NCBI RefSeq assembly: GCF_963921235.1
Contig: NC_086097.1
Location: forward strand, 147,500,001 to 147,564,000
Origin: Mobula hypostoma
Taxonomy: Eukaryota
Reading direction: 5' to 3'
Length of the DNA stretch: 64,000 nt
A program made the translations under genes and the position numbers. Below, piece by piece: positions 1,995-62,805 of the stretch (position 1 is its first letter; the number at the start of each line of letters is the position of its first letter). A model generated the notes under the pieces. That model did no database searches. It saw only the letters and a list, made by a program, of their open reading frames with translations, and was not told the DNA's origin.

Positions 1995-4900
1995 CAATAA
2001 TTCCCAGTGCCAGGAAAAGGATGTCTCAGATCTGGTCCATAGCAGTCTTAAGAGGGTGGTGAGCATTCATAAGTTACGGTACACATTGACCAATGTACCA
2101 ATGGCGTAGGTAGGAAAAGAGATGAAATCAGATCTCTGAAGCAAAATGCCTATTCAAAGCTCTGTCATAGGTAGCAACTGCTAGGAACGCAGAGGAAAAG
2201 ATCCAGCGATGCTCTCAAAGCTTCCTTGAAAGACTGCAATAACCTCAAAGAATCCTGGGAATCCTTGGACCATGACCAATCAAAGTGGAGAAACTTGGCC
2301 GTGTGGAGGATCAGAGGGATCTTGGGGTCCGAGTCCATAGGACATTCAAAGTTGCTGTGCAGGTTGACTCTGTGGTTAAGAAGGCATATGGTGCATTGGC
2401 CTTCATCAATCATGGGATTGAGTTTAGGAGCCGAGAGGTAATGTTGCAGCTATATAGGAACCTGGTCAGACCTCACTTGGAGTACTGTGCTCAATTCGGG
2501 TCACCTCACCACAGGAAGGATGTGGAAACCATAGAAAGGGTGCAGAGGAGATTTACAAGGATGTTGCCTGGATTGGGGAGCATGCCTTATAAGAATAGGT
2601 TGAGTGAACTCGGCCCTTTCTCCTTGGAGCGACGGAGGATGAGAGGTGACCTGATAGAGTTGTACAAGATAATGAGAGGCATTGATCGTGTGGATAGTCA
2701 GAGGCTTTTTCCCAGGGCTGAAATGCTTGCACGAGAGGGCATAATTTTAAGGTGCTTAGAAGTAGGTACAGAGGAGATGTCAGTGGTAAGTTTTTTACAC
2801 AGGGAGTGGTGAATGCGTGGAATGGGCTGCCGGTGATGGTGGTGGAGGCAGGTACGATAGGGTCTTTTAAGAGACTCCTGGATAGGTACATGGAGCTTAG
2901 AAAAATGGAAGGCTATAGGTTACCCTAGGTAATTTCTAAGGTAAGGACATGTTTGGCACAGCTTTGTGGGCCTAAGGGCCTGTATTGTGCTGTAGGTTTT
3001 CTATGTTCTATGTTTCTATGTTCTAAATCCTGGAGAGAGAATATAGGCAGCCAGGTACAAAGCTGAAAAGCAGGACCTCATGGATACTAATCTCTGGACT
3101 GCTGCCTCTGCCATGTACCAGTGAGGGTAAGAATAGAATGCTATGGCAATTGAATGTGGGGTTGAAAAATTGGTGCAGATTTGTGGATCATTGCGATCTC
3201 TTCTGGAGAAGGTATAACCTGCACAAAGGGACAGGTTACACCTGAACTTGAAAGGAACCAATATCCTTGCGGGCTGTTGGGGAGAATTAAAAAGTTAAAA
3301 CCAGGTTGGCAGGAGGATGGGAAACACAACGATAGGTCCAAGAATGGAGCAGATGCAGGGTGTAGAGAATCTGTGAGAAAGTCTAGGCAGTTGACAGGGC
3401 AAAACTGCAGTTAGTGGGCTGCGTTGAAATGTATCGGCTCTAATGCGAGAGGTATCAGGAAAAGGAGAGTATGGATCAGCACATGGAACTGTTTTGTTGC
3501 TATTATAGAGAGATTACAGAAAGGGAGAATGTTGTGGGGAGATCATCTACTGAGTCTATGTAAATGCAAGTCTGAAACAGAAAAGGAGCAATCCCCCGCC
3601 CCAACAGCAGCAGAGACACTGAGTAGCAGATCAAGAGGCAAATTATGGAAAGGTGTAAAAATAACAGGGATATTGTCTTGGGTGACTTCAGCTTCCTTAA
3701 TATTGATTGCTACCTCCTTTAGTACAAAGTGCATAGATGGGGCAGAATTCGTTAAGTGTGTCTAGGAAGGATTCCTGACACAATATGTGGACAGGCTGAC
3801 TAAAGGAGAAACCATTCTGGATCTTATACTAGACAATGAACTTGGCAAGGTGACAGATCTCACAGTGAAGGAGCATGGAAGTTCTGTATAGGTTTGTCCC
3901 ATTGAGGCAAGGAAAGGATGGAACAGTGGAGGAACCATGGTAGACAAGAGAAATGGAACATTCAGTCAAGATGATGAAGGAAGCATACTTAGGTTTAGGA
4001 AGCAAGGATCAGAAGGGCTCTTGACAGTTATAAGGTAGCCGGGAAGGAGATTAAGAAGAGATTTAGAAGAGCTAAAAGGGGACATGAGAAGACCTTGGTG
4101 AGTAAGATTAAGGAAAACACTAAGGCATTCTACACATACATGAAGAACAGGATTAGAGTGAGGGTAGGACTGATCAGCGATGAAAGAGGAAACATGTTCC
4201 AAGAGCTGGAGGAGGTAGGGGAGCTCCTTAATGAATGTGTTTCTTCAGCATTGACCAGTGAGAGGGAACTTGACAAATGCAAAGACAGTGTAGAATAGGC
4301 TAGTATGCTGGAACATGTTGACATTAAGAAAGAGGAAGTGTTGGAATTTTCAAAAGACATTAGAATAATTAAGTCCCTGTGGCTGGACGGGATATACCCC
4401 AGGTTACTATAGGAAATGAGGGAAGCAATTGCTGCTTATAGGGCGATGGTATTTGTGTCCTCACTGGCCATAGGAGTAGTGTCAGAAAATGGAGCATGGA
4501 AAATGTGAGACGTTTGTTCAAGAAAGGTGATAGGGATAATGTGGTGTGTTATCAATCAGTGAGTCTTTCATCAGGCTGGGCAAAGTATTGGGACAGGATT
4601 TACCAGCTTTTGGAGAAGCATAGTCTGATTAGGGATAGTCAGCAAAGCTATGTGAACGGTAGGTTGTGCCTCACAAGTCTGATTGACATTTTTGAGGAAA
4701 TGACAAAAAACAAATTGATGAAGATAGAAGAATGGATGTGGTATAAATGGATTTTAGTAAAGTGTTCGACAAGGTTCCCCATGATAGGCTTATCCAGACA
4801 GTCAGCAGGCCTGTGATCCAGGGAATCTGCTACATGGACTCAGAATTAGCTTGCCCACAGAGGGCACATCAGTAGTAGATGGAGTATATTTTGCCAGGAG

Positions 4901-10867: not shown

Positions 10868-13720
10868 CTAGCGGAAGTTAGAGAAGTCGATGTTCATGCC
10901 ATCAGGTTGGAGGCTACCCAGACGGAATATAAGGTGTTGTTCCTCCAACCTGAGTGTGGCTTCATCTTTACAGTAGAGGAGGCCGTGGATAGACATGTCA
11001 GAATGGGAATGGGATGTGGAATTAAAATGTGTGGCCACTGGGAGATCCTGCTTTCTCTGGCGGACAGAGCGTAGATGTTCAGCAAAGCGGTCTCCCAGTC
11101 TGCGTCGGGTCTCACCAATATATAAAAGGCCACATCGGGAGCACCGGACGCAGTATATCACCCCAGTCGACTCACAGGTGAAGTGATGCCTCACCTGGAA
11201 GGACTGTTTGGGCCCTGAATGGTGGTAAGGGAGGAAGTGTAAGGGCATGTGTAGCACTTGTTCCGCTTACACGGATAAGTGCCAGGAGGGAGATCAGTGG
11301 GGAGGGATGGGGGGGACGAATGGACAAGGGAGTTGTGTAGGGAGCGATTCCTGCGGAATGCAGAGGGGGGGGAGGGAAAGATGTGCTTAGTGGTGGGATC
11401 CCGTTGGAGGTGGCGGAAGTTACGGAGAATAATATGTTGGACCCGGAGGCTGGTGGGGTGGTAGGTGAGGACCAGGGGAACCCTATTCCTAGTGGGGTGG
11501 TGGGAGGATGGAGTGAGAGCACATGTACGTGAAATGGGGGAGATGCGTTTAAGAGCAGAGTTGATAGTGGAGGAAGGGAAGCCCTTTCTTTAAAAAATGA
11601 AGACATCTCCCTCGTCCTAGAATGAAAAGCCTCATCCTGAGAGCAGATGCAGCGGAGACGGAGGAATTGCTAGAAGGGGATGGCGTTTTTGCAAGAGACA
11701 GGGTGAGAAGAGGAATAGTCCAGATAGCTGTGAGAGTCAGTAGGCTTATAGTAGACATCAGTGGATAAGCTGTCTCCAGAGACAGAGACAGAAAGATCTA
11801 GAAAGGGGAGGGAGGTGTCGGAAATGGACCAGGTAAACTTGAGGGCAGGGTGAAAGTTGGAGGCAAAGTTAATAAAGTCAACGAGTTCTGCATGCGTGCA
11901 GGAAGCAGCGCCAATGCAGTCGTCGATGTAACGAAGGAAAAGTGGGGGACAGATACCAGAACAGGCACGGAACATAGATTGTTCCACAAACCCAACAAAA
12001 AGGCAGGCATAGCTAGGACCCATACGGGTGCCCATAGCTACACCTTTAGTTTGGAGGAAATGGGAGGAGCAAAAGGAGAAATTATTAAGAGTAAGGACTA
12101 ATTCCGCTAGACGGAGCAGAGTGGTGGTAGAGGGGAACTGATTAGGTCTGGAATCCAAAAAGAAGCGTAGAGCTTTGAGACCTTCCTGATGGGGGATGGA
12201 AGTATATAAGGACTGGACATCCATGGTGAAAATAAAGCGGTGGGGGCCAGGGAACTTAAAATCATCGAAAAGTTTAAGAGCGTGAGAAGTGTCACGAACA
12301 TAGGTCGGAAGGGATTGAACAAGGGGTGATAAAACAGTGTTGAGGTATGCAGAAACGAGTTCGGTGGGGCAGGAGCAAGCTGAGACAATAGGTCGGCCAG
12401 GACAGGCAGGTTTGTGGATCTTGGGTAGGAGGTAGAAACGGAAAGTGCGGGGTGTGGGAACTATAAGGTTGGTAGCAGTGGATGGGAGATCCCCTGAGTG
12501 GATAAAGTCGGTGATGTTGTGGGAGACAATGGCCTGGTGCTCCTTAGTGGGGTCACGATCGAGGGGTAAATAAGAGGAGGTATCCGCGAGTTGTCGCTGT
12601 GCCTTGGCAAGGTAGAGGTCAGTACGCCAGACTACAACAGCACCCCCCTTATCGGCGGGTTTAATAATAAGGTTAGGATTAGTGCGGAGGGAGTGGAGAG
12701 CAGAGCGTTCCGAAGGAGTGAGGTTGGAATGGGGACAAGGTGCGGTGAAGTCGAGATGGTTGATGTCCCGTCGGCAGTTAGCAATAAAGAGATCCAGAGC
12801 AGGCAGAAGACCAGAGCAGGGTGTCCATGAAGAAGAGGAGGGTTGAAGACGGGAGAAGGGGTCATCGGTGGGGGTGGAAGAGTCCTTGCCGAAGAAGTAG
12901 GCTCGGAGACGGAGACGGCGGAAGAAAAGTTCCGCATCGTGGCGAACACGGAACTCGCTGAGGTGTGGGCGAAGGGGGACAAACGTGAGGCCCTTACTGA
13001 GAACAGAGCGCTCTGCCTCCGACAGTTGAAGGTCGGAGGGGATGGTAAAGACCCGGCACGGATGAGAGCTGGGATCAGAGGGGGGAGGGGGGAGGCTGGG
13101 GGTGTCAATGGAGAGGGGAAGGTTGGGGTGAAAGGAAGATGGAGCCTCTGAGGGCCCAGGAGCTGACGGTGGGATCTGAGGAAGACGGGGCTGCGGAGTG
13201 GTGGTGGGGGAAGGGGAGACGGGAGTCACAACAGCAGCACATAAAGACCCGGCCTGGAGTTCAAGGCTGGAGTCGCAGTTGGTGGTTGTGCAATCGCTGT
13301 GAAGGTGTCCATGGTCGTTGCTGGAGTCCGGGTTTTGAATATGTCCTGAGGTGTTGGAGCCGCCGAGATCAATGGCAGGGGCCGCAATCTGAAGTTCATG
13401 CCTGCTAGCGTCGGGGCCGGCAGGCTCTGGAGTCCGTAGATGTAAGATCTTGCGATCTTTGCCTAACATGACAAAGTCAAAAAAACGGCGATTGCAGGCG
13501 TGGATCCGACGGAGGATGAAATAACGGGTAGGACCATTACAGACCGCGAAGAAAGTGTCCCGAAGGTGTGGAAGGGTCTGGGATAGAGACACCAAGTACC
13601 TCCTCATGGCGGAGAGCATCGCCTTCAGAGCTTGACGGGAGAAGCGGCGAGAGGCAGAGTCAATAAAATGTGAGTACCTGGGATCCTCAGAAGGTCCAAA
13701 TTGAGAGGCTTGGAAACGAA
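10868..13720 (-). pseudogene. Penelope RT plus GIY-YIG endonuclease ORF, disrupted
   Basis: The 649-aa ORF 11670..13619 stays open upstream to the 5' truncation point. A premature TAG at 11670-11672 (NAIPF*QFLRLR) and apparent 1-nt deletions near 11583 and 11212 separate it from the GIY-YIG ORF ending at 10868. Confidence 0.92.
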
Positions 13721-13822
13721 TCTCTGTGATATTAGTTCAGTTCCAGTCTCTTCATTAACACAACTTAAATTTACTGGCCAGATGCACAGCTTTGCCTTTT
13801 GCAACCCTTACAACCTTGTGTA

Positions 13823-25000: not shown

Positions 25001-28000
25001 ATCAGCCAACTGTCACAACAGGTCAGCAGCAGGTGCCATCTCATTGGCTCTTCACTTAACCCTGAAACATCTGGACAGTGAAGTCACATACATCAAGGTG
25101 CATTCCATTGATTAGGGCTCTGCATTCAATACTATCTTCACCTCAAAACTAATCAATAAGCTCCAAAACTTTGGCCTCAATACCTCCTCCGCAATTGGAC
25201 ACTTCACTTTCTCACTTGCAGACTCTAGTCAGTACAGGTTGACAACATTTCCTCCACAGTCACCACAGGAGCACCACAAGGGTGTGTATTAGCCCTGTGC
25301 CCTACTTGCTTTCTACTTATAACTGTGAGGCTAAGCACAGCTCCAATACCATATTTAAGTTTGCTGATGACACCACTGTCATTGGCTGAATTAAGAGTAG
25401 TGACAAATCAGCAGAAAGGAGGGAGATTGAAAATTTGGCTGAGTGATGTCAAACAGCATTGCTCGGTGAACGCCAGCAAATCCAAGTAACTGATTATTGA
25501 CTTGAGGAGGAGGAAGTAAGAGGACAATAAGCCAGAACTCATCATGATATCAGACATGGAGAGGGATAAATTTATCAGCATTATCATTTCAGAGGACCTG
25601 TCCTGGGACCAGCACTTAAGTATCATTACAAAGAAGACACAGTAGCACCTCTACTTTATTAGAAGTTTGTGAAGATTCGGCATGTCACCTAAAACCGCGA
25701 CAAAGTTCTATAGATGCATGGTGGAGAACATACTGACTGGTTGAATCACAGCCTGGTATGGAAACATAAATGGCCTTGAACAGAAAAGCTTACTAAGAGT
25801 ATTGGATACTGCCCAGTCCATTATGAATGCAGACCTCCCTGCCATTGAACAGATCTACATGGACTACTGTCGCAGGAAAGCAGCATCCATCATCAAGGAC
25901 ACAGGCCACACTCTCTTCTTACTGCTGCCAATAAGAAGAAGGTACAGAAGCCTTAGGACCCACACCACTAGGTTCAAGAAGTGTTATTACCACTGAACGA
26001 TCAAACTCTTGAACGAAAGGGAATAAATTCTTTCAACTTCACTCACCCCTGCACTAAACTGATCCCACAACCTATGGATTCACTTTTAAGTACTCTTCAT
26101 CTCATGTTTTCAATATTTATTGCTTTTTTTTTTTCTTTTTGTATTTGCACAGTTTTTTTTGGTTGCGCATTCTTTTTTCTGTAGGGAAAGTAATTAAGAG
26201 AAACGCAAATAATTCGCAACCACTGACATTGAGTTGGGGTTTCATTCTGACATAATGATGTTATTATGTAAAGATTTTTAGCTCATTTTTGTGTTTAGAT
26301 TTTGGAATTCAATAAAACGTGTAACAAGTTTCATTAGGCATAAACGCTTTACTTAATTTTATTTTCGAAAACCTACATTGGTGACTCCAATGCTCTCGGA
26401 TGATTCCAGAGTTATTGAATATGTCGGCCAATGCAGTTGTTCTGAAACTGCCAGACCTTTGGGAGCAAAATGTTATTGCTTGGTTTATATAGCTGAGGCC
26501 CAGTTCGCTCAGCGAGAAATCACAGCCGACGACACCAAATTCTATTTCGTGGTAGCATCATTCAGCAGTTTCATGGCTGTAAGAGTGATGAGTCTGCTTG
26601 AACATCCGCTTGAATACGATAAATATCGATTGCTGAAAACTCACCTTTTACTGACTTACAGACTATCAGAGTCTGAACACACCAACAGTTATTCTCCCTG
26701 CCCAGTCTCGACGATAATAGGTCTTCGGAGCTCATGGACCACATGCTCTCTCCCCTGGGAAATCACCATCCTTGTTTTATTTTTAAAGAACTCTTCATAC
26801 AGCAAGTGCCTAATCAAGTTCAAATAGCCCTCACTAATAAACCCATGAAGGACAATAGGGAGCTTGCTAAGATGGCTGATAGCCCACACTCATCCAGGCA
26901 GCGGTGCATTGTTCCTCCTCCTTTCTCTACCTCAATGAGCTCGGTCAACAAGGCCCCCAACATAAGGATGCCTGCGGTTTCGAAACAGACATCAGGCCTG
27001 TGCTTTTACCATGCTTGCCTTCTTAGGAAGTGCCAACAACCTTGCAGCTTCGAGGGTGTCAGCACATCAGGACATCAGAGGTTTGTGAACACTGTGAGTT
27101 CCAGCTGCCAGAGTTGTCTACTGTTCATTACAGACACTCTTTCAGGGCAACGCTTCCTGTGTGACATGGATGCTCAAGTGAGTGTTCTTACAGCATTGCC
27201 TATTGATGAGAAGGCGAAGATGAAATCTCGATGGTGTCCACCAATGGCATCCAGACTTATGGGACATGATGGATGACACATCCGTGGGCAACTTTACGTA
27301 TGGGACTTTGTCTAGGCTAAAGTGACTAGACCTCTGCAGACTTCCTGTGTGCCCAAGGACTGTTAGTTGATCTGAAGAACAGCCAGACATTGTCAATGAC
27401 ATTTTGGGCATTATCCTGCTCCCCCTGTAAGTTCCCCACAACAACTCTGTCAAGCGCATGCAACAACACATGTGAGTTTACCTGACTGCTGGACGAATTC
27501 CCAGACTTGACCAAGCCCACATTCTCCACTACAGTCACAAAACATCAGGTTGAGCGCCACTTTCCCACAACTGTGTCCATGCAAAGACTGGACCCAGAAA
27601 AGCTGACAACTGCGAAGGATAAGTTTGCCAACGTAAAAAGTCTTGGCATTGTATGCCAGTCGAATAGCCCAAAGACTTCACCCCTCCATATGGTCCCTAA
27701 TTCTCTTAACTGCCAGTTAGGGGCCCTGCCGTTAACTTTCTCGGCCATCGCATTTCCGCAGAAGGTGCAAAATCCCTCCCATCAAATGTAGATGCTATTA
27801 TGGATTTCCCACCACTCCACACAACAAAAAAACTACAGGAGTTTTTAGGTATGGTAAATTTCTATCATCACTTAATTCCCTGAGCTGCCAAAGTTATGCT
27901 CCCCCAATATAGTGCACTGAAAAACAATACCCCTAATCAAGTGCTTGACTGGTCAATGGACATGACCAGGGAATTTGATGATACCAAATGAGCTCCTTCT

Positions 28001-28152
28001 AACACGACGCTACTGGGGTACCAACTCCCCAATGCACCCATAGCTATTACTACTGATGCCTCAGACTATGCTGTGGGTGCTGTGCACGAAGAGTTGGTCG
28101 GAGACGTGTGGCAGCCGCCCGCCTTCTTCAGCCAGCTGCCCCATCCCCCTGA

Positions 28153-28709
28153 TTACCTTAAACAACTGTGATGTTGGGGCTGCTGGACCATCAAGTCATC
28201 AGCTGGGTCCATCCACCTTCAGGCGTTTCATCCCCTAACCCAGAACTTCTTCAGGATGGTGGGACAGCAGAAGGTGATCAGTTCTACCCCCGACGGTCAG
28301 ACATCCAGCTACTATCGTCTCTTTGCAGCCAAAGCCAACTGGAGGCTCTCTCTGTTGCTTGGCCCATGGTGTTAACGGCTCTCTTTGTGGTTCTCCGTTG
28401 TATCCCTAAAGCTGCCATCACCTTCCAGCATGGCATGGCATGGCGGGAAATCCTCTTGCCCCCACTTCAACAGGGAAGTTCCATGTCTGCCAGCCTTGCT
28501 GTCTGCAGTCCGCCACTAGGTCTTCATACCTCACAAGCTTCCTCTCGTGAGCCTCTTGGCATCGGGTCTCCCGTGGTACTGTTAGCTCTATCACCACGAG
28601 CTTCTTTGCACTCTCTGACAATAGTAGAACGTCTGGTCGAAGTGTGGTCTCTACTATTGGTGGGAACACCAGCTTCTTTTCAAGATTGACCTTCATCTCC
28701 CAGTCCTTT
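28153..28709 (-). mobile_element. HERO/R2-group 3' fragment (restriction-like endonuclease) inserted in the Gypsy RNase H
   Basis: Reads RPDVLL..VVIELTVP..EAHERKLVRY..PVEVGARGF. The Gypsy AFFS..PPE|RKYST sequence is split at the junctions. Confidence 0.9.
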
Positions 28710-30033
28710 GAAAGGAAGTACAGCACGTTTGACCGTGAGCTTCTTGGTCTCTAAATGGCAGTCAGCCTTTTTCATTTTCTTCTAGAGAGTTGCCATTTCA
28801 CAGCATTCATTGACCACAGACCCCCTCGTGCATATGATGGCCAAAATATCAGACCCATGGTCTGCACAGCAGCAACGCCACCTACCCTACATATCAGAGT
28901 TCACAATGAATATACAACATATCAAGGGGAAAAGTAATGCTGTGGCTGAGCGCCTCTCACGGCCAGCCATGACAGCGTATACATGGGGATTGACTATGCT
29001 GGCATGGCAGCTTACCAAGTAATTGACCCAGAGGTACAGGCTTACCCAACAGCATTCACCAGCCTGTGGTTGCCTGATATTAATTTTGGCAAGCTAGGGT
29101 TTCCCTCCCGTGTGATGTCTCAACCAGCTGCCCTCGCCACATCGTGACCGCAAACTGGAGACAGACTGTTTTTGACTCCATGCATGGCATCTTGCATCCA
29201 GACCAGAAGGCCTCAATGTAACTGGTTGCACTAAAGTTGAGATGGCACAGCTTCAGAACGGACTGCTTGATTGGACTGTAGCCTGTGTGGCGTGCCAGCG
29301 GGCAAAGCTTAACCGTCATGTTCAGGCACCAATTGCATCTTTTGAGGTCCCTGAACGACGGTTTGACCATGTCAATGTGGAAGTCGTTGGTCTTAGTCCC
29401 CCCCCCCCCCCCCCCCGCAGTTTCACACACCTCCTTACCATGGTGGGCGGTGTCACCAGGTGACCAGAGGTCATCCCCCTGGCATCAACGATGGCCGAAG
29501 ATGTGGCTCGGGCATTCATCAGCACCTGAGTTGCTCAGCTTGGCACCCCATTTGATATTTCCTCTGACAGCGATCCCCAGTCTATATCAGACCTCTGGGG
29601 TGCGATGGCCCAGAATCTTGGTGTTAGTCTACATCTCACCATGCCTTATCACCCTCACTCCAATGGCCTTTGTGAGCGGTGTCACCGCTCCTAAAAGGCT
29701 GCTCTGAAGGCTTCCCAAACCGACGAGTATCAGCACAGTTGGCTCCCTTGGGTCCTGCAGGGGCTCAGAACAGCTCCAAAGGAGGACCTGCAGTCGTCCG
29801 TGGCTGTTTATATACGGGTGCCAGGTGGTTTCCTTCCTGATACCACAACTACCTGCATTGGCCTCTCCACCCTCCTAAGTAAATTCAATTCCTTTTCACC
29901 TATTCCTAACTCCTAACATGGTTTGAGCACTCTTGGGTTCTGACTCGTTCATTTTCATCCACCATGATGCACACCAACTTCTCTTACGGCCCCCTTACGA
30001 TAGCCTGTTCCGCATTTTAGAATGGGGAGAAAA

Positions 30034-31149
30034 CTGCCGTTAACTCAGCAGTCTCATCTCGCCCATGGGGGCCGGGCCTGGCCAAACCTTCCCACTCCAC
30101 ACCTCTACCTCTTGCTATGGGCACCCGGCCAGGGGCCTCATCTAGCTCCTCCTCCTCCGGCACCTCCTCACTTGTGTCCTCGGGGAGAGTGTGGAGACCC
30201 CACGGCCCTGCCTCCCCCGGGGCATGGACTGTCGCTGGTAGTTCCAAAGTCATGACGTCGGCACTCGTCCGCACCAACATCCAGCTAGCCTCCAGTTCTT
30301 TCCCACCCCTTCTAGCTACAAGTTCTACCTGCCCGATACCTTTAATCAAGCTCAACCCTCGCACCAGTACCTCTGCCGGAATGCGATAATCGACCCCGCT
30401 TACCACACATGCATGATTCACCGGTACCTCCTCCAATTCACACCAACTTACAATCTTATCTCGATCCATCTTCACACCACTTACCACAACGACCAGTACA
30501 ACTTTCCCGAAAAGTCCAAATCCAGGACGGTAGCCCCCACTTGTAACGTTCAGTTATATTAGCTCGTGTATGTCTAGGGGAAATCCAGCCCAGCACATGC
30601 CTCAACACTCCCCACAGGGTCGGTCGCCGCCCGAATCAATCACAAACGTCAATCATCAGCCAGCACACCCAGTGAATTTTAACAAATACACTTTACAGAT
30701 ATTACTAATTCTATGACACTAATATACATTTGATACAGAGAGGAAAGTAATGAAAAAAAAGGGCGCCAACACTTATCAAAGTCCAAGTTCTTCGCGCGCT
30801 ACGTTGGAGCTCAATTCGACTTCAGACGACCACCCGAATTCCGTCGACTCACGGCTCGGGACCACCCTGAGTGATCGACCGGAGCCTCTCCACACATCCG
30901 CGGTCCTCCATGTCTCTCCTCCGACCCCCCCGCCAAAACTCAGTCCACAGTCATATCATACAGTATGGCATCCAAAAACAAAATGATACATAACCACCCA
31001 TTGGCTAATAGAACCCTGTTATCTCATTTTAAAGTAAACAAACTGCTAGCGCAAACTCTCTTCAGCGTTAAAGCACAACAAAGCCGCATTCCACAGATTA
31101 ACATAACAAAGTCGCCATTTTAAATGTAACAAAAGAAAGACCCCATACA
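30034..31149 (-). mobile_element. Truncated second LTR element: 5' LTR (30542-31149), tRNA-Pro-like PBS and PNMA-like gag N-terminus
   Basis: The minus-strand LTR runs TGTATGGGG...AACGTTACA and is followed by TGGGGGCTACCGTCC. ORF 30017..30487 (IVSWCELEEVPVNHACVVSGV..LPATVHAPGEAGPW) resembles the PNMA N-terminal domain. Confidence 0.8.
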
Positions 31150-33322
31150 ATAGCAAACGGGTAAAACTGAACATATTTTGGTAGATCACCTTAAACCGAC
31201 TGGCCCACCAAGATTTGGAGTATTCCACATACATGTGTCAATGCACCTCTGGACAAGCCAGAGGCATCTGCAGTTCCTCCAACCGTGACAACCATGGAAC
31301 ACGGGACTTGAGCTAGGCGACTCGTCCGAGCTCCGGAAAGGCTCATAATGCCGGCTTTAGTGAATTCTGGGGGGGGGGGGGGCAGGCCTGTGTAGGGCAA
31401 CGTGGTTGGGAGAAATGTACATAATTCATACCCACTGAGGTTGAGTTGGGGTTTCACTATAAGAGGCTCATGTGACATGATGATGCTATCATGTAAAGAA
31501 TTTAGTGCACTTTTGTGTTTAGGTTTTGGAGTTTAATAAAATGTGTTACAGGTTTCATTAAACAGAAAACGCCTCACTTCATTTTATTTGCAAAAACCTA
31601 GTCTGTTGGCCTTTGTTGTGTGCATTTTTTTCATTGATTCTGTTGTGTTTCTTTGCATTTACTGTGAATACTGCAAGAAAATTAATCTCAGGGTAGCACA
31701 TGGTTTCCTATATGTCCTTTGATGATAAGTTTACTATGAACTGAGAACTTTATATGTTGATTGTCATGGCTGCTGGGTTTGTTTGACGGTAGCGGGTAAG
31801 CAATGCAAAATAGAAAAAAAAAGCTTACAAAAATGTTAACAATTATGTTTAATGATAGAAATAATTATCACTTCTTAGCCTGGAGAACTGTTTCTTTACC
31901 AATACACTTGTTAAGGGAAATAAACATTAGCACACATGGAGAGGTGTTCTGAGGTCTGAACCAAATGAGCCTCACCAGAGCTACAATTATTGAAGAGCTG
32001 TTAGCTTTATAACAGCTATAATGAATGTTAATTGATTAATTGCTCTGAATAGCACTTAATCATAAATATTTCCATGATTATGTGAACCAAGAATAATACC
32101 GCCGTGGGAACACAGAAATGAATGACAAGAAATGAATGGCAAATTATTGGCCCTTCCATTTCATTAAAAGAAATCATGCTATTTTGTAAAGTAGAAACAG
32201 GTATTCAAAGCAGACTTTGTAACAAGCAATGAAGAAAAATCTTTTCTCCTTTTCTCTGATTTCATCCCATGTGCTACTCGCTATGTTGAACATACAAAAC
32301 AAGAAATTCCAAGCCTTAGACACAGCTATGTGTTGAATGAACGGATCCCAATTCAGTGGTCACAATGAGCAGTAAAAGACACATCAATTGAAAAAAGGTC
32401 TTTAAATTAGCCAGAAATAATATCAGAAAATGCTGATGAAAGGTCTTTGTGTGAAATGTTAACTCTATCCACAGTTTCTGTCTGATCTGCTAACTGTTTC
32501 CAGCAGTTTCTGTTTTCATTGCAGATTTCCAGCATATATTTTTAGGCAGTTTACCACTTACTTCTGTTTAAATTTTTGATCCATCTTGCACCAATCCCCT
32601 AAACTCTGCCCAAAGAACAACCTCAGGAATGCTTAAACTCCTTCTGTCACTATAATATGTTTGGAAAGAGGAAAATAACTTTGGACCTATGGTTTCCAAA
32701 GCCCTCTGCTGGTGGAGTTCCATCTTAATGTAAGCTAACTAATAGAATTTTATTGCTATGATTTATTAAATATTCAACTGTCTCCTTGTGCAATTGACCA
32801 GAGAGATAATAATAATAATAAGTATTTTATTGATCCCCAATGGGAAATTACTTCATAACAGCAGCAACATTTAAAAAATACACTTAGCAATAATAATAAA
32901 TATAACAGTTTTAACTAATAATAAAGTACAGTATAATAATATACACAATAATAATTTACCAATGTGCAATAATGTACAATACTGTGCAATAATAATGCAC
33001 AAAATAATAAAAAAAAAGACTATTGTACTATGATGAGTGTTCTCCTGTCGCACAGAGATGAGCTGTTACATACGTTTATTGCATTTGGTAGGAAGGATTT
33101 TCTGTAATGATCCCTGTGACAACGGAGCTGAATGAGTCTTTTTGAAAGGGTGCACTGCTGCTTATTCAATAGGTTATGGAAAAGATGTGCCTGATTATCC
33201 ATAATGGATAACAGTTTGTTTAGTGACCTCCTCGCCACCACAAACTCAAGAGTCCAGGTTGTAGCCAAGGACGGATCCAGCCTTTTCGATGAGTTTATTT
33301 AGTCTTTCTGCTTCACCAGTGT

Positions 33323-47814: not shown

Positions 47815-48260
47815 GCCAACTTTTGTACCCTGGAAAGGGAGCCCCATTATCAGATTGCGTTTCAGCTGGATCTCCATATTTAGCTAATAAAGTTTTAAGA
47901 CAACAGAAAGTGTTGTCCTGCTCTGCCTTGACAGAAAGGACAGCCATCAAAAGACCTGAATAGATGTCAACCATGCTTAAGGGATACTTGTATCTCAGTT
48001 TTAGGGGAAGTAGACCAATGTAAGCCCTCTCTGCCATATTCGCGCAGGGCAACTGCCAGGCTATTTCATTAATGGTCTAGTTTTACTAGTTGGCATGCCT
48101 CACATTGGGGCATGCATACACCTGCAGCAGCCTTGAAATATTTCTTCTCCCTCAATGATCCAAATCCCCTTGTGGTGGCTACTTCTAGAATATGCTGCAT
48201 AAGCAGGGAAGGAAGAATTCCTTCAGAATTGTGGAAGAGGAAGGAGGGGTTGGAAGACAT
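47815..48260 (-). pseudogene. Retroviral-type integrase relic (ERV class III/spuma-related-like)
   Basis: A zinc-finger remnant CEACQ is followed by YIGLLP..YKYPLSMVDIYSGLLMA..YGDPAETQSDNGAPF, giving the first two catalytic Asp residues. It is truncated before the Glu. Confidence 0.7.
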
Positions 48261-56650: not shown

Positions 56651-57460
56651 GGTATAATTCTCTATTCCTCAGGTCCTGTTTGTATCAGTGTGGTGATCTA
56701 GTTTAGTTCAATTTACTGCACAACTCTTAATTAATCAATGTGTTTCTGCATAAATATCAACATAACTATGTTGATCCTGGACCAACAACAAAAAACATGA
56801 ATTCTAGTGTCCCCTCTGTATCAATACTGACTGAGAACACTTCTCCAATTCATAGCACTGAAAAAAGGGGATCTCCCATTAGCCAAATAATTGATTCTAC
56901 TTCTCCCAGCCCTTGACATGGTGCCTTCCTTGCGATAGTTAATTCCTGGAGCTCACACTGCTTTACATTGAAAGCTTCTCATTCTTGTAGCCTCCTTATC
57001 AGTTCAAATGTTATGCTTCAATTTCACTGGCTCTGGCCTATCTGGCCCCAAGCCAGCATCATTTTATTGCTCTTCTTGCAAGTGACAACTTGTAACTGAG
57101 GTCTCTTTTTTCTGAATCAAAGCAGACCAGTCAGTTCTAGGTTCAAGTTACTCAGGTTAGATACAGACTCCCCTCTTCATGAACCTGCATGCTTTATCAT
57201 ACGAAAGAACACTTTGTAAATAAGTTCTTATTCAGAAATTATCTCTAGTTCAGCAGATTATCGGGAGCATCATTGTGTCCTCTTTAAAAGCATTTTGATA
57301 TAGTTATTCGTGACTAAAACCAGTTCACAAGACAGCACACAAAATGGAGGTTACACAGTAGCTTCACAAAATGGCAGCCTCCATTCCTTCAACCACATGG
57401 CAAGAATAAAGACAACTGGTTTGTCTACTTCCACTGTCTTTGGCTCATTCAAGTTCAATG

Positions 57461-59450
57461 TTAATATATACTATATAGATGAATAGGTAGTTTTACAACA
57501 GGTTTGGTTAATATTTGTCCAGCCAAAATAAAATTTTCTGAAACTTTGGAAACTGCAAAATTAGTGTTAAACAAACTGCAAATTAAAGATCCCTTCTTGT
57601 AATGTGTGCTTGAAGTAGCAATGTAATAAGTATCATTTACCAAATGGAATGCCCTGTTATTGACAGGCAAAATAGATATAGAACTATTATTGAAAATAAT
57701 TCAGAAGATGTGTAACTCGGATAAGAAACGAACCCACAATCCGTTAACCCATTCTTAACTAAATCCTCTGGACAAACCCAATATTCTCCTTTTGATGACA
57801 GAAAGACAAATTTATGCCCTTTGTAGATCCTTGCCACTCAATAGCAAAAGTAAGGAATATGAAGTACTGCTCCAACATACAGTGGTCCAGACCCATTCCT
57901 ACAATTTCCAAGGAGGTGATTTGTCAAGGTGAATTCCCTAATTTAGTACCCTGTGGTGTTATTACCAACCTGTTCCTTTGACTGTTTGACTGAAATCTAA
58001 TCAGGAATCCAAAGGTTGTCTAATTGTACCATGTTAACTCCTAATGCAGAAAGTAACCATGAGGTATACACTGTACATACAGCATCCGTAGCACATTGAG
58101 TAGTTTCATTATTAACTCCGTCAATCATTCGATTTGTTATATTACACAAGGGTTGTAAAATGACCTGGATGAGGAAGTGGAGGGATGGGTTAGCAAATTT
58201 GCAGATGACACAAAGGTTGGAGGTGCTGTGGATAGTGTGAAGGGCTGTCAGAAGTTACAGTGGGACATTGATAGGATGCAAAACTGGGCTGAGAAGTGGC
58301 AGATGGAGTTCAACCCAGATAAGTGTGAAGTGATTCATTTTGGTAGGTCAAATATGATGGCAGAATATAGTATTAATGGTAAGACTCTTGGCAGTGTGGA
58401 GGATCAGAAGGATCTTGGGGTCCGAGTCCATAGGATGCTCAAAGCTGCTGCGTAGGTTGACTCTGTGGTTAAGAAGACATACGGTGTATTGGCTTTCATT
58501 AATCGTGGAATTGAATTTAGGAGCCAAGTGGTAATGTTGCAGCTATATAGGACCCTGGTCAGACCCCACTTGGAGGACTGTGCTCAGTTCTGGTCGCCTC
58601 ACTACAGGAAGGATGTGGAAGCCATAGAAAGGGTACAGAGGAGATTTACAAGGATGTTGCCTGGATTGGGGAGCATGCCCTATGAAAACATGTTGAGTGA
58701 ACTTGGCTTTTTCCCCGGGCTGAAATGGTTGCCACAAGAGGACACAGGTTTAAGGTACTGAGGAGTAGGTACAGAGGAGATGTCAGGGCTAAGTGTTTTA
58801 CTCAGAGAGTGGTGAGTCCGTGGAGGCGGATACAATAGGGTCTTTCAAGAGACTTTTGGATAGGTACATGGAGCTTAGAAAAATAGAGGGCTATGGGTAA
58901 GCCTTGTAATTTCTAAGGTAGGGACATGTACGGCACAACTTTGTGGGCTGAAGGGCCTGTATTGTGCTGCAGGTTTTTCTATGTTTCTATGTGGAGCATT
59001 TCCAAAACTAGATTTGCTTGTTTTTCACCAAAAGTGCTAACTCCTCCCATCTCCTCATAATCTCAATTTATAATTTCTTTCATCTTTTGGCTTAGATAAT
59101 TTAATTAAGGGTTTACCTCTGTAATATCTAGCATATTTAGCATGGAAACTCCAGTAGCATATCCTAATCTCATAAATTCAATTACCTCTTACTTCGCCTC
59201 TCTCATGTTTTAAATTCTGAATGGGTACACAGTTCAAATAAAAATGTTGGAAAAGCTCCTGGGGGCTTATTCCACACCAGCTAGGAATTTGGAGGGATGT
59301 CAAGTTGGACGTCACTTGAAAATAAGAAACAAAACACAGTAGAATAACTTATTCTTCCATTTCTTCTAATACAAGTCCGATTCCCTTTGTATCTGCCTGA
59401 ACCTCATCACACAACGAAGGACTAGTAATGGTTGGCACTACAAAGTGGTA
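57461..59450 (-). pseudogene. Decayed env-position gene encoding an F-like class I fusion glycoprotein (lokiretrovirus-like), split by CR1
   Basis: Manual translation: CDEVQADTKGIGLVLEE..SNLTSLQIPSWCG..RRSKR/VIEFMRLGYATGVSMLNMLDITEVNP*LNYLSQKMKEIIN*..[CR1]..CNITNRMIDGVNNETTQCATDAVCTVYTSWLLSALGVNMVQLDNLWIPD*IS..VGAVLHIP..TKGINLSFCHQK/GEYWVCPEDLVKNGLTDCGF..AFHLVNDTYYIATSSTHYKKGSLICSLFNTNF. It lies directly downstream of the integrase on the same strand. Confidence 0.72.
58157..58992 (+). mobile_element. CR1 LINE fragment inserted into the env-like gene
   Basis: Reads VSKFADDTKVGG and RPHLEDCAQFWSP, with a ttctatgtttctatgt tail. TGT is present at both junctions (58154-58156, 58990-58992). Confidence 0.93.
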
Positions 59451-59843
59451 TCAGTTGTTGTCAACTCGACCATGGGGTAAGGTGTGTATGGAAGATCTGA
59501 GGCCCCAGAGCAACTGGGATTGAGTTATCCAGGGCACGTGTTAACTGATGACCTCATTTCTGATGTGTGTCCACACCAACGGTGCCATTATATTCACAAT
59601 GAAGATATACTTGAGTTATAAGCCCTTTTTCCCTAAAGCTGGACCCAAACAAAAACATGAATTCCCACCATTATCCGAGTAATTTCACGTAGGACAAGAT
59701 ATTATAGACTGCGACATAATGGTCTTCCTTAATAGTGTCAATTAATTGCTATACCCATTTGTCCTTTACAATACCATCATACTCAGGCTCTGATAAATCT
59801 AACCAAACCAAGAATTTTAACTTTTTCATTTCTCTCCTGGTCA

Positions 59844-60281
59844 TCAACTTGTAGGTCCAATAGAAGAAGCTTTGGTGGTAGGGAATATCATAAGGACATA
59901 AAATAAGACAGTGACCCATGTGGTCCTGTGCTGTTCAGCCATTTTAGCCAAAATTGCTTTTAAAGTCCTGTTCATTCGTTCAACAATTCCACTGGATTGG
60001 GGTTGATAAGGGATGTAGAACCTCCATTTTACCACACACTGCTTCATTAGATTTTGCATTACCTGTGAGGTGAAAAGAGGACTTTGATCTGATTCTAGAC
60101 TCTTTGGCAATACCCAATGGGTAAAAACTGACTTGAGCAAATTCCTGGCCGTAACCTTAGCACTGTTATTCCTAGTTGGGAAAGCCTCTATCTACTTGTT
60201 GAAAGTATTCACTCTCAGTGGGATATATTTCAGTCTTCCAGGGGATGGAGTAAAGGTCCTACAAGATTAATGTGCAAGTTT
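59844..60281 (-). pseudogene. Integrase core relic of the same LTR retroelement/endogenous virus
   Basis: Reads NLHINLVGPL..NTFNK*IEAFPTRNNSAKVTARNLLKSVFTHWVLPKSLESDQSPLFTSQVMQ..PYQPQSSGIVERMNRTLK (D..D35E core). Confidence 0.9.
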
Positions 60282-60289
60282 TTGGGTGA

Positions 60290-62200
60290 GCTGAATTTGG
60301 TGCAAGAGGTCATTCGTTGGTAAAACAGTTCATGTTTTTTAAAAAGCTCCAGTCTTTTGGCTCTTTACAGCAGGTTGAAATCAGTGTAGGTCCAATAAAA
60401 GAGGGAGGTGTAAGTGGATAGACCATTGTGTGAGTGGTGGTCAGACTTTGGCTCAACAGGCTTCGGCAAGAACAGGCTTGGCCAAGCACAGGTGGAGGTT
60501 CTAAGTAAGTAAGTAATAAGGTTCCTATTAAGTATTTTTCTCTATTACTACATAGCTGGTGTTCTGGGAATGGTGGTGAAGGTTCTGTTATGTTCTTTGT
60601 GTGAGATATGGGAACTCTGAGAGACCTCTAGTCTCCCTGATAACTACATCTGCATGAAATGCACTGAGCTACAGCTCCATGGAGACCATGTTAAGCAACT
60701 GGATTTGCAGCTGGATGGCATTCAGCACACATGGCAAAATGAGGAGAAGATAGATAGGAGCTACAGGGAGTCAGGTGTCACTCCACTCTTTAAGAACGAG
60801 GGAAACAGAAGAGAGAAAATTATAGGCCAGTTAGCCTGATTTCAGTGGTTGGAAAGATTTATGAGTCTATTATTAAGGAGGTGTTTTCAGGGTACTTAGA
60901 GGCATATGATAAAAAGGACAAAATCAGCGTGGTTTTCTAAAGAAATTTTGCCTGACAGATCTGTTGGTATTCTTTGATGAAATAGTAGGCAGGATTGACA
61001 AAGAAGAGTCAGCGGATGTTGTTTACTTGGATTTTCAGAAGGCCTTTGACAAGGTGCCACACAAGAGGTTGCTTAACAAGATAAGAGCCTATGGCATTAT
61101 AGAAAAGGTAATAGCATGGATAGAAGATTGGCTGATTGGCAGGAGGCAAAGAATGGTAATAAAAGGAGCCTTTTCTGGTTGGCTACTGGTGACTAGTAGT
61201 GTGCAGTGGAGATTGGTTTGGGGCAGCTTCTTTTAACATTAAATGTCAATAATTTCAATGATGGAAGTGATGACTTTGTAGCCAAGTTTGTAGATAATAT
61301 GAAGATAGGTGGAGTTGCAGGCAGTGTTGAGGAAGCAGGAAGTCTGCAGAAGAACTTAGGCAGATTTGGGAGAATGTGCAAAGAAGTGGCACGTGGAACA
61401 TAGTGTGGGGAAGTATATAGTTATGCACTATGTCAGGAAGAATAATATCATAGACTGTTTTCTAAATGGGGAGAAAATTCAAAAATCAGAGGTGCAGAGG
61501 GACTTGGGAGTCCTCATGCAGGATTCCCTAAAGGTCAACTTGCAGGCTGAGTCAGTGATAAGGAAGGCAAATGCAATGTTAGCATTCATTTTGAGAGGAT
61601 TAAAATGTAAAAGTAAGGATGTGATACTGAGACTTTATTAGGTATTTGTCAGGATACATTTGGAATATTATGAACAGTTTTGAGCCCCTTATCTCTTATC
61701 TAAGAAAAGATGTGTTGGCATTGGAGAGGGTCCAGAGGAGAATTACGAGAATAGTCCCAAGAATGAAAGGTTTAACATATAAGGAACGTTTGATGGCTCT
61801 GAGCCTGTACTCACTGGAATTTAGAACAATGTAGGGGGATCTTATTGAAATCTATCAAATAATAAAAGGCATAGATTGAGTGGATGAGAAGTGGATATTT
61901 TGTCATTGTGGGGGAGTCTATGACCGGAGCACACAGCCTCAGAATTGAGGGATGTTCATTTAGAAGAAAGATGAGGCAAATTTCTTTAGCGAAAGGCTGA
62001 TGAATCTTTGGAATTCATTGCCAAATACAGCTGTGCAGGCCAAGACCAAGGTTCTTGATTAATCAGGACATCAAAGGTCACAGTGAGAAGGCAGGAGAAT
62101 AGGGTTGAGAGCAATAATAAATTAGCAATGATGGGATAACAGAGCAAATGTAATGGACTGAATGGCCTAACTCTACTCCTATGTCTCATGGTCTTATGGT
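60290..62200 (+). mobile_element. CR1 LINE with 5' UTR and ORF1 zinc finger fused to RT by an internal deletion
   Basis: ORF1 CSLCEIW..DNYICMKC..LQL (60570-60770) joins directly to VTPLFK (RT, about 60777). It also has VYLDFQKAFDKVPH and a tail cctatgtctcatggtcttatggt. Confidence 0.88.
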
Positions 62201-62529
62201 TAACCCATGGTCCTTCTATAGGGCGTGTGTATCCTAAAACTCAGTCAAACTACTGCAAACATATTGTCTGAGTGTATTACCACTCCCTGAAGGATATCTG
62301 TCTGGATGACTGACATCAAAAAACCATAGCAGCAAGATCTGTCGCTTCTGCACTCATTGTTTTAGGTAACTTGATCATGATACTCTCAATCTCTACTCCT
62401 TCTTCATCCTCTATGTATATACTACATTCTACATGCCTCTGTCCATCCTGAACTGATGACAATCCATCAACAAAAATCCTTAAGGAGAAAACTTCCAGTC
62501 GCATGACTTTATTTTCTTCTCCTGATTTT

Positions 62530-62805
62530 AACTAATTTGCCAGGGGGATGAGAACCGGAGTGATAATGCTGAAGACGAGATTGTTGGTTTACAAACAGAG
62601 GCAATGTGTAGTGAGGCTCCTAGCAAGGAGAGGCTAATGATAGGGCAAGATTGCAGTCGACAGGATGAGTTGCAACATAAAAGGTGGACAGAATCTAAAA
62701 GAGTGAATACAGGACTGAATGTGTTATATTTGCACAGTAAACAGAATAAGGTATATGAACTTATAGCACATATATGGATTGGCATGCATGATGTTGTAGG
62801 GGCTG
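62530..62805 (+). mobile_element. CR1 ORF1/ORF2 junction fragment
   Basis: GLNVLYLHSKQNKVYELIAHI....DVVG is the start of a CR1 APE endonuclease. Confidence 0.65.

Follow-up and report, generated by a model that had tools for sequence, protein, structure and literature searches.

The locus studied here lies in a window of 64,000 nucleotides of Mobula hypostoma (NC_086097.1, positions 147,500,001 to 147,564,000; the window is the whole stretch of DNA that was analysed). An earlier note, made from the sequence alone, had read positions 57461..60281 as an endogenous retrovirus (ERV) whose broken envelope gene (env) encodes a fusion glycoprotein of the paramyxovirus F type, and had called it lokiretrovirus-like. 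What kind of retrovirus was this, did its Env have an F-like fold, and what became of the gene? We think it very likely that the window holds a dead ERV copy of the snakehead retrovirus (SnRV) branch, that its Env was F-like, and that a sister env on contig G000:C2 of the ray genome (hereafter C2 env) was kept as a probable host gene.

A decayed provirus in the window

The feature is a genuine decayed endogenous retrovirus. It spans 56694-62531 on the minus strand, extending further in both directions than first assigned, and comprises an RNase H remnant, an integrase, an env in three pieces around a long interspersed nuclear element (LINE) of the CR1 type, and a 3' long terminal repeat (LTR). 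The glycoprotein motifs that had been reported were found where they had been placed on the minus strand, spread over three frames. Env piece 1 (58989..59681) aligns to codons 116-349 of the open sister env at 79.5% DNA identity, has 7 frameshifting indels and contains the furin site (about 59185-59199), the fusion peptide and the start of heptad repeat 1 (HR1). Piece 2 (57850..58161; codons 349-452, the end of HR1 and core strands) carries stops and aligns at 82% DNA identity with no indel, and piece 3 (57461..57851; codons 483-606, the Cys-rich domains) aligns at 79% with 6 indels; all three are on the minus strand. Altogether, pairwise DNA alignment to the 733-codon sister env gives 79-82% identity and 13 indels, of which 12 have lengths not divisible by three. 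Because the DNA aligns at this level to an uninterrupted gene, the env motifs are not due to chance, and the gene was indeed hidden by stops, frameshifts and the CR1 insertion. Pfam matched none of six single-frame reads of the window env.

Pieces 1 and 2 are separated by a 5'-truncated CR1-like LINE in the opposite orientation (58162..58988, plus strand), which is 90% identical to window 2289-2588. It is absent from copies L002 (the C2 copy), L007 and L030, which read uninterrupted across the site and place the bounds of the insertion at about 58162-58988. Since family copies read across this site, and since integrase and env adjoin in many of them, the proposed excision of the CR1 was correct and the two genes were mobilised together.

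The integrase core (59699..60280, minus strand) is truncated at its 3' end and shares 72-81% DNA identity with family copies and 44% identity with the integrase of the protein P0043. Its frame 59844-60191 matched Pfam rve at E 2.3e-6, short of the curated cut-off, and prototype foamy virus integrase at E 4.7e-12 in a Protein Data Bank (PDB) search; a homologue search with the window integrase as query returned no result. The alignment of the window with family copies ends at 62199 and restarts at 60280, pol being split by later insertions (60281..62198), mostly a plus-strand CR1-like LINE, with repeats common to other CR1-like copies in the window. From their reverse transcriptase (RT) motifs, we take these LINEs to be CR1. 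Beyond them lies the broken RNase H remnant (62241..62531, minus strand), whose DNA is 70-78% identical to the corresponding part of copies L031, L045 and L046, a part that matches PF00075 in L046; Pfam gave no match to the window piece. At the other end, the 3' LTR (56694..57462, minus strand, about 760 nt) matches both LTRs of the full-length copy L046. A tRNA search gave no result.

The window copy has lost env codons 607-733 (heptad repeat 2 (HR2), transmembrane helix and tail) and the 3' untranslated region (UTR), in agreement with the suggestion that the membrane anchor was deleted. It also lacks env codons 1-115, the integrase tail and the spacer (a deletion of about 1 kb), and with them the signal peptide region. 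The cleavage site had been thought to be near the N-terminus of the protein; it actually stands at residues 279-282 of 733. Neither the window nor the following 10 kb yielded an RT, gag or 5' LTR of this copy, which in itself is an unremarkable, decayed member of the family.

An extinct family with a full-length copy

At least 44 matches to window 58993-60300 were found in the 3.48-Gb genome, where the window lies on contig G000:C1; leaving aside the match of the window to itself, their identity is 72-81% (40 of 139 candidates scored). A search with a query that included the first half of the LTR gave 1902 first-look candidates genome-wide, of which 40 were scored. Among the fuller copies, L046 runs from LTR to LTR, and between the two stand, in this order, gag (which has a CCHC knuckle), protease, RT, tether, RNase H, integrase and env. 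The presence of an ERV in a cartilaginous fish was borne out. With stops read as X, Pfam found in it, in order, zf-CCHC, RVT_1, RT_RNaseH_2, RNase_H, Integrase_H2C2 and rve; the protease motif was identified by eye. The start of gag has a coiled-coil-like stretch near the 5' end, with no match to an SMC family. The L046 LTR pair is 83.5% identical (Kimura two-parameter distance 0.134), which corresponds to about 30, 130 or 300 million years by the three rates quoted in PMC7947760, PMC10699275 and PMC4422223, and we adopted no absolute age. The family is a group of extinct endogenous retroviruses of the ray.

On many small contigs (G000:C168, C135, C111, C163, C112, C148, C122, C153 and C169), the integrase matches are nearly identical and share the position of a CR1, which suggests one copy amplified inside a larger repeat. 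The genome also contains a second, more distant env subfamily at 40-47% identity, one member of which (G000:C21:139536812-139537750) keeps an open frame of 548 codons, with a broken piece after it.

An open env copy under selection

The C2 env (G000:C2:126459313-126461511) is an uninterrupted frame of 741 codons, 733 from its Met, in a provirus whose RT and tether are deleted and whose gag carries LINE insertions; its 5' LTR was not found in the 4.6 kb checked. It was the single full-length match without stops among 79 protein matches (61 of 1163 candidates scored, after a strict first look), and none of 75 DNA matches held another copy above 88% identity to it. An intact env, one of the things a fuller copy had been expected to supply, is thus at hand.

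In a triplet test, private change at codon positions 1, 2 and 3 was 0.045, 0.043 and 0.091 in the C2 env, against 0.106, 0.096 and 0.100 in the other copies. The RNase H-integrase region and LTR of the C2 copy change like those of other copies (ratios 1.06 and 0.96), while its env is slower (0.59), the slowdown being at codon positions 1 and 2 and not at position 3; the 3' UTR, with few sites, likewise changes slowly (0.61). Private changes in the C2 env comprise 62 synonymous and 40 nonsynonymous ones (pN/pS 0.18), as compared with a pooled pN/pS of 0.83 in 17 broken copies (Fisher p 9e-13), which range from 0.51 to 1.70 and among which the window copy stands at 0.86.

The C2 Env is 93% identical to two RefSeq proteins, XP_059838750.1 and XP_072911529.1, from the stingrays Hypanus sabinus and Hemitrygon akajei, which are 96% identical to each other, and each of the three species retains the RXXR site. 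The resemblance points to a ray related to stingrays as the host. Part of the C2 gene was present in 20 of the 24 sequencing runs listed (7 organisms). Four of the gene-holding runs entered the cross-species comparison, X9 with short, shallow pieces only. In runs X14 and X17, the env pieces listed differ from C2 by 3.2% and 3.6% and are gap-free, whereas pol and LTR pieces differ by 7.7-8.9%, pol being mostly gapped; in these two other species, therefore, conservation of the env exceeds that of the flanks of the same insertion about 2.5-fold. Because a contig of run X17 spans the RT deletion, the insertion was defective before the species split. Along the protein, 4 of 196 residues differ from P0001 in the segment 283-478, against 28 of 200 in residues 1-200.

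Two further observations concern copy number. A truncated Hypanus sabinus paralogue (P0003) has 95% identity, and one contig of run X17 begins exactly at the splice acceptor (L031:6804). Some species may carry a processed or duplicated env copy.

A first exon from outside the provirus

Both RefSeq models start with the same first-exon peptide, which is not encoded beside env. Back-translated and joined to a splice donor, this peptide gave a pattern with one exact match in the 3.48 Gb, 9.4 kb upstream of env on the same strand, and a contig of run X19 (organism D; taken as RNA by guess) joins this exon to an acceptor just before env. Transcription of the C2 env is indicated by this spliced contig, its RNA status being a guess, together with the two RefSeq models and their common first-exon peptide. 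Both the exon and a TATA-like motif belong to an old dispersed repeat that is unrelated to the provirus (L051:250-660; G000:C2:126449549-126449959) and for which 605 candidates were found and 40 scored, at 67-86% identity.

Being open under purifying selection in several rays and spliced to an outside exon, the C2 env is most likely a host gene, and, as far as sequence can tell, it is probably domesticated. We weighed against this that the env might be open by chance, through late viral activity or through gene conversion, with no host function, which we consider very improbable. Replicating viruses are also under purifying selection, a long viral branch could mimic it, Hypanus sabinus has its truncated paralogue at 95% identity, and the argument for a host role of the C2 Env is drawn from sequences. 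Yet the same provirus has no RT, carries LINEs in gag and shows neutral-rate decay of pol and LTR, no sister copy above 88% DNA identity turned up among 75 matches, the env is better conserved across species than its own flanks, and three species have the same outside exon in common. Some features of the data count against a domesticated gene: the triplet counts are not independent; of 30 indels and 441 substitutions across species, 12 and 40 were listed; orthology is argued from the RT deletion and first exon that the copies share, and flanking genes play no part in it; none of the gene-holding runs is recorded as RNA, the status of X19 included; the join of exon and acceptor could come from a processed copy; and run depth cannot rank genes and was not used as evidence.

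A predicted F-like envelope

The open Env has the plan of a type I membrane protein, with a signal peptide, a 200-residue N-terminal domain and a core of predicted F-like fold, in which the furin site (R279-R282) is followed by the fusion peptide, HR1, Cys-rich domains, HR2 and the transmembrane helix. The sequence starts with a hydrophobic stretch, has RRRR at 279-282 and contains 8 sequons, and a strong transmembrane segment lies at about 690-708. A motif scan found no CXXC, CX6CC or ISD-like (immunosuppressive domain) motif in it, as had been observed for the window copy. Of the seven sequons reported for the latter, NLT, NET, NGS and NDT recur in the open copy, while NLS, NIT and NNT are products of decay.

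A full HMMER search with the open Env gave 36 relatives; among the 20 checked were 17 cartilaginous-fish proteins and 2 frog proteins, the remaining one being P0034, which is described below. A profile of 33 Env rows matched human parainfluenza virus 3 (hPIV3) F at E 0.0026. With an AlphaFold model as query, Foldseek placed respiratory syncytial virus F first (E 4.5e-8) and returned 93 PDB chains at E<=0.001; the 44 rows listed were all paramyxovirus or pneumovirus F except for one foamy virus Env. Env of walleye dermal sarcoma virus (WDSV), as well as that of walleye epidermal hyperplasia virus (WEHV), was also among the Foldseek matches. Superposition on hPIV3 F with VIA gave Z 9.4 and a root mean square deviation (rmsd) of 7.8 over 288 aligned residues. 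An unbiased search of 48,161 chains was headed by Newcastle disease virus F (Z 9.2, rmsd 11.1, 304 aligned); foamy Env ranked seventh (Z 8.3, rmsd 4.9, 265 aligned), and short helical bundles stood between the two. The best matches in BFVD were F-like glycoproteins of lispi/arli-like viruses and baculovirus F. An F-type fold, as first proposed, is a prediction supported by four partly dependent lines.

Against it stand the mediocre models (predicted local distance difference test (pLDDT) 57.6 and 65.9, residues 1-206 unmodelled), with high rmsd and TM-score under 0.5; the short helical bundles, which score Z 8-8.7 in the unbiased search; and Pfam, whose Fusion_gly family (PF00523) matched one of 34 homologues and not the open env itself. 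The homologue, P0034 (Fusion_gly E 4.7e-6; 26% identity to the family Env over 260 residues, E 1.5e-5), is termed loki-type here from its likeness, by eye, to Env rows in the supplement of PMC7947760. Other searches gave less. A single-sequence PDB search with the open Env found no useful match, ESM Atlas reached at best 0.85 with the whole Env, a lead only (spike, haemagglutinin and F clusters), and with the N-terminal domain, which was modelled at a pLDDT under 50, it had no usable match.

Is this fold peculiar to the ray family? By hhalign, the family Env profile, which includes the loki-type row, matched the transmembrane subunit of SnRV Env (L052:7700-9200) at 83% (E 8.7e-6) and that of a walleye virus Env (L054:7201-8640) at 91% (E 1.3e-6), in comparison with 0.9% for a gamma-type control (TLV_coat Env). 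Apparently, then, SnRV and WDSV Env are F-like as well. Foamy virus Env also combines a furin-cleaved F-protein scaffold with an added module (PMC11468914); the extra domain of the family Env differs in being N-terminal, after a short signal peptide, and not between the subunits. Because foamy Env and apparently SnRV and WDSV Env share it, an F-like Env is not diagnostic of lokiretroviruses.

Some Env relatives deserve mention. P0010 (Chiloscyllium punctatum, 739 aa) and P0012 (Pelodytes ibericus, 723 aa) are long and apparently complete, and P0040 is a 519-aa protein of Xenopus tropicalis; these could be either young ERVs or further captures. P0014 and P0028 are env fragments in host gene models, in a Pristis TRP-channel gene and in a Heterodontus fbxo15 isoform ending in the env transmembrane region.

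Relationship to SnRV and to lokiretroviruses

The Pol proteins nearest to the family are those of coelacanth and frogs (45-48% over RT). We compared RT rows of SnRV, epsilon, foamy, gamma, delta and outgroup elements with two lokiretrovirus RTs taken from metagenome contigs; 9 of the 11 metagenome matches to the RT pattern were not RT. The SnRV sequence (L052) has the length given in PMC12193657 (10,688) and an RT matching a row of the PMC7947760 supplement. In the RT tree (44 rows) the family joined the coelacanth and frog proteins (98/93), SnRV was their sister (93/95), and canonical retroviruses grouped without the lokiretroviruses (97/94). The tree of RT plus tether (32 rows) gave 95/94, 93/93 and 98/95 for the same groups. 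The RT tree leaves out L035 and L048, whose single-frame reads are poor, as well as L057, which is a duplicate, and the greater part of the redundant foamy, gamma and outgroup loci; the RT+tether tree also omits L048. Both trees reject a Gypsy origin. Four of the Pol relatives, P0041-P0044 from coelacanth and three frogs, are entered at NCBI as 'protein NYNRIN-like'; each is a complete retroviral Pol, and no other proteins came closer to the family.

That the family is a true lokiretrovirus, extending this lineage to cartilaginous fish, is very improbable. Lokiretroviruses have the same LTR-gag-pol-env layout and dual RNase H (Wang and Han, PMC7947760), and their Env, too, is F-like, with RXXR, fusion peptide, coiled coil and transmembrane segment (PMC7947760). 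The Ty3-like tether is well kept in the family, L046 has a dual RNase H (PF17919, E 1.4e-14, then PF00075, E 9.1e-7), its gag has the coiled-coil-like stretch, and the NYNRIN-like name of the nearest Pol proteins recalls the placement of lokiretrovirus integrase near CGIN1/NYNRIN, a smc-like gene being optional in that group (PMC7947760). Dual RNase H, however, also occurs in canonical retroviruses, a coiled-coil stretch and a CCHC Gag also in SnRV and SnRV-like ERVs. The RT motifs of the family (LPQGFHNSP, LDISNGF, QYVDD) are those of the SnRV row, not the [C/L/M]PFGY found in every lokiretrovirus row in the parts of the PMC7947760 supplement available, which also has RG.L.YVDD-type motifs. 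Over RT and tether, L046 is 31% identical to lokiretroviruses, 37% to SnRV and 48-49% to P0041 and P0043. The published Latimeria lokiretrovirus Pol differs, by eye, from P0041, and a teleost lokiretrovirus RT pattern with 1 mismatch allowed had 0 matches in the genome. An approximately unbiased (AU) test rejected the union of the clade with lokiretroviruses on RT plus tether (p 0.0096). The lokiretrovirus label, and with it membership of that group, was therefore given up, while the earlier remark that cartilaginous fish were not among its originally reported hosts agrees with PMC7947760, which lists 6 chondrichthyan genomes, none marked positive.

Judged on its sequence, the family is very likely an ERV of the SnRV clade, a group also known as clade Huo or class III (PMC6001957, PMC12193657), and so a canonical retrovirus with a loki-like Env that is not itself a lokiretrovirus. 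Weighing against this placement are the AU test on RT alone, which did not reject union with lokiretroviruses (p 0.082); the two lokiretrovirus rows, which are nearly identical; the alignment of broken RTs on P0043 as reference, which favours the coelacanth and frog rows; the composition of the trees, without ERV-L, ERV-S, fish foamy-like or beta/lenti rows and with exogenous foamy rows only; and the SnRV node, at 93 and unstarred. The family differs from SnRV in its shorter Env (733 aa as against a 1134-codon frame), which has a short tail, and from lokiretroviruses in the position of its RT outside their clade and in the extra 200-residue domain before the F core of Env. SnRV-like ERVs are known in a cartilaginous fish, the elephant shark (CmiERV lineage I, PMC4422223).

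A foamy or fish foamy-like origin is the least probable of all, since the foamy proteins that give the best PDB matches for integrase and RT, and are among the lowest-rmsd matches for Env, face no competing SnRV-clade protein in the PDB, while foamy rows form a 100/100 clade apart from the family in both trees, the Gag has a CCHC knuckle as in SnRV, no spumavirus Pfam family was matched, and fish foamy-like RT rows (ZFERV-2, AciFLERV) read YIDD and LPQG[FY]KNSP.

Possible function of the C2 Env and wider meaning

In the history that we propose, after the family died the C2 copy would have lost its RT while its env was kept open by purifying selection in several ray species. Transcription would start in the upstream exon, in the unrelated repeat, and be spliced onto the acceptor. 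By analogy with class I fusion proteins, the Env would enter the endoplasmic reticulum through its signal peptide, form trimers and be cleaved by furin at RXXR, after which the fusion peptide would insert and HR1 and HR2 collapse together. The low divergence of residues 283-478 and the higher one of residues 1-200 would fit a conserved fusion engine and a faster-changing binding domain. As the fusion machinery is the most conserved part of the protein, a cell-surface fusogen is the likeliest job for the C2 Env, a putative role that we put forward tentatively, as somewhat short of an even chance. A putative receptor-blocking antiviral defence is a more doubtful proposal, and other signalling or adhesion roles are slightly more doubtful again.

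These rays feed their embryos with uterine secretions, and a role of the Env in the uterus is a hypothesis. Chicken Ovex1 is reportedly a class III, SnRV-related ERV with a conserved env-like frame, and Drosophila Iris is said to be a domesticated F-type env in insects; both are precedents for parts of the ray finding. Co-opted foamy viruses, a possible further precedent, are reported from geckos.

The closest functional parallels are syncytins, percomORF and the chondrichthyan syncytin-like Env, in which an open env in a decayed provirus is likewise spliced, conserved and under purifying selection (10.64898/2026.05.06.723177; PMC12813294). Those proteins are gamma-type, with ISD and CX6CC, whereas the C2 Env has neither, and its fusion activity and reproductive expression are putative. 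The chondrichthyan screen required ISD and CX6-7C motifs, and the available part of its main text names neither stingray genus (10.64898/2026.05.06.723177). Lacking ISD and CX6CC, the C2 env would be missed by syncytin-based screens. Our literature search, which did not cover subscription journals, found no report of the C2 gene or of an F-like Env in the SnRV clade. With the C2 env, the capture of an envelope gene by live-bearing rays can be put to the test on a concrete candidate, the Env relatives in sharks and frogs are open to the same screening, and an intact natural Env makes structure and receptor work possible where fossils do not allow it.

Wang and Han did not decide between four scenarios of how Env arose (PMC7947760). 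An F-like Env in the SnRV clade and in the walleye epsilon viruses, besides lokiretroviruses and foamy viruses, favours its presence in their common ancestor, and the pairwise scores together with foamy Env suggest that Env was F-like at the root of the retroviruses. A bolder combination, that rays domesticated an F-like Env as a working fusion gene, a non-gamma counterpart of syncytins and possibly uterine, and that the F-like fold is the ancestral retroviral Env, we regard as unlikely in its entirety; if true, the ancestral Env was later replaced by gamma- and beta-type transmembrane subunits.

Other retroelements in the window

A separate LTR-retrotransposon-like remnant occupies window 26180-31600. 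Its repeats are separated by 5.2 kb, and it includes one piece resembling RT/tether (27728-28135) and one resembling integrase (29281-29838). A further integrase-like fragment lies at 47834-48049, and at 11673-13736 the minus strand has an open frame of 688 codons that is probably a retroelement.

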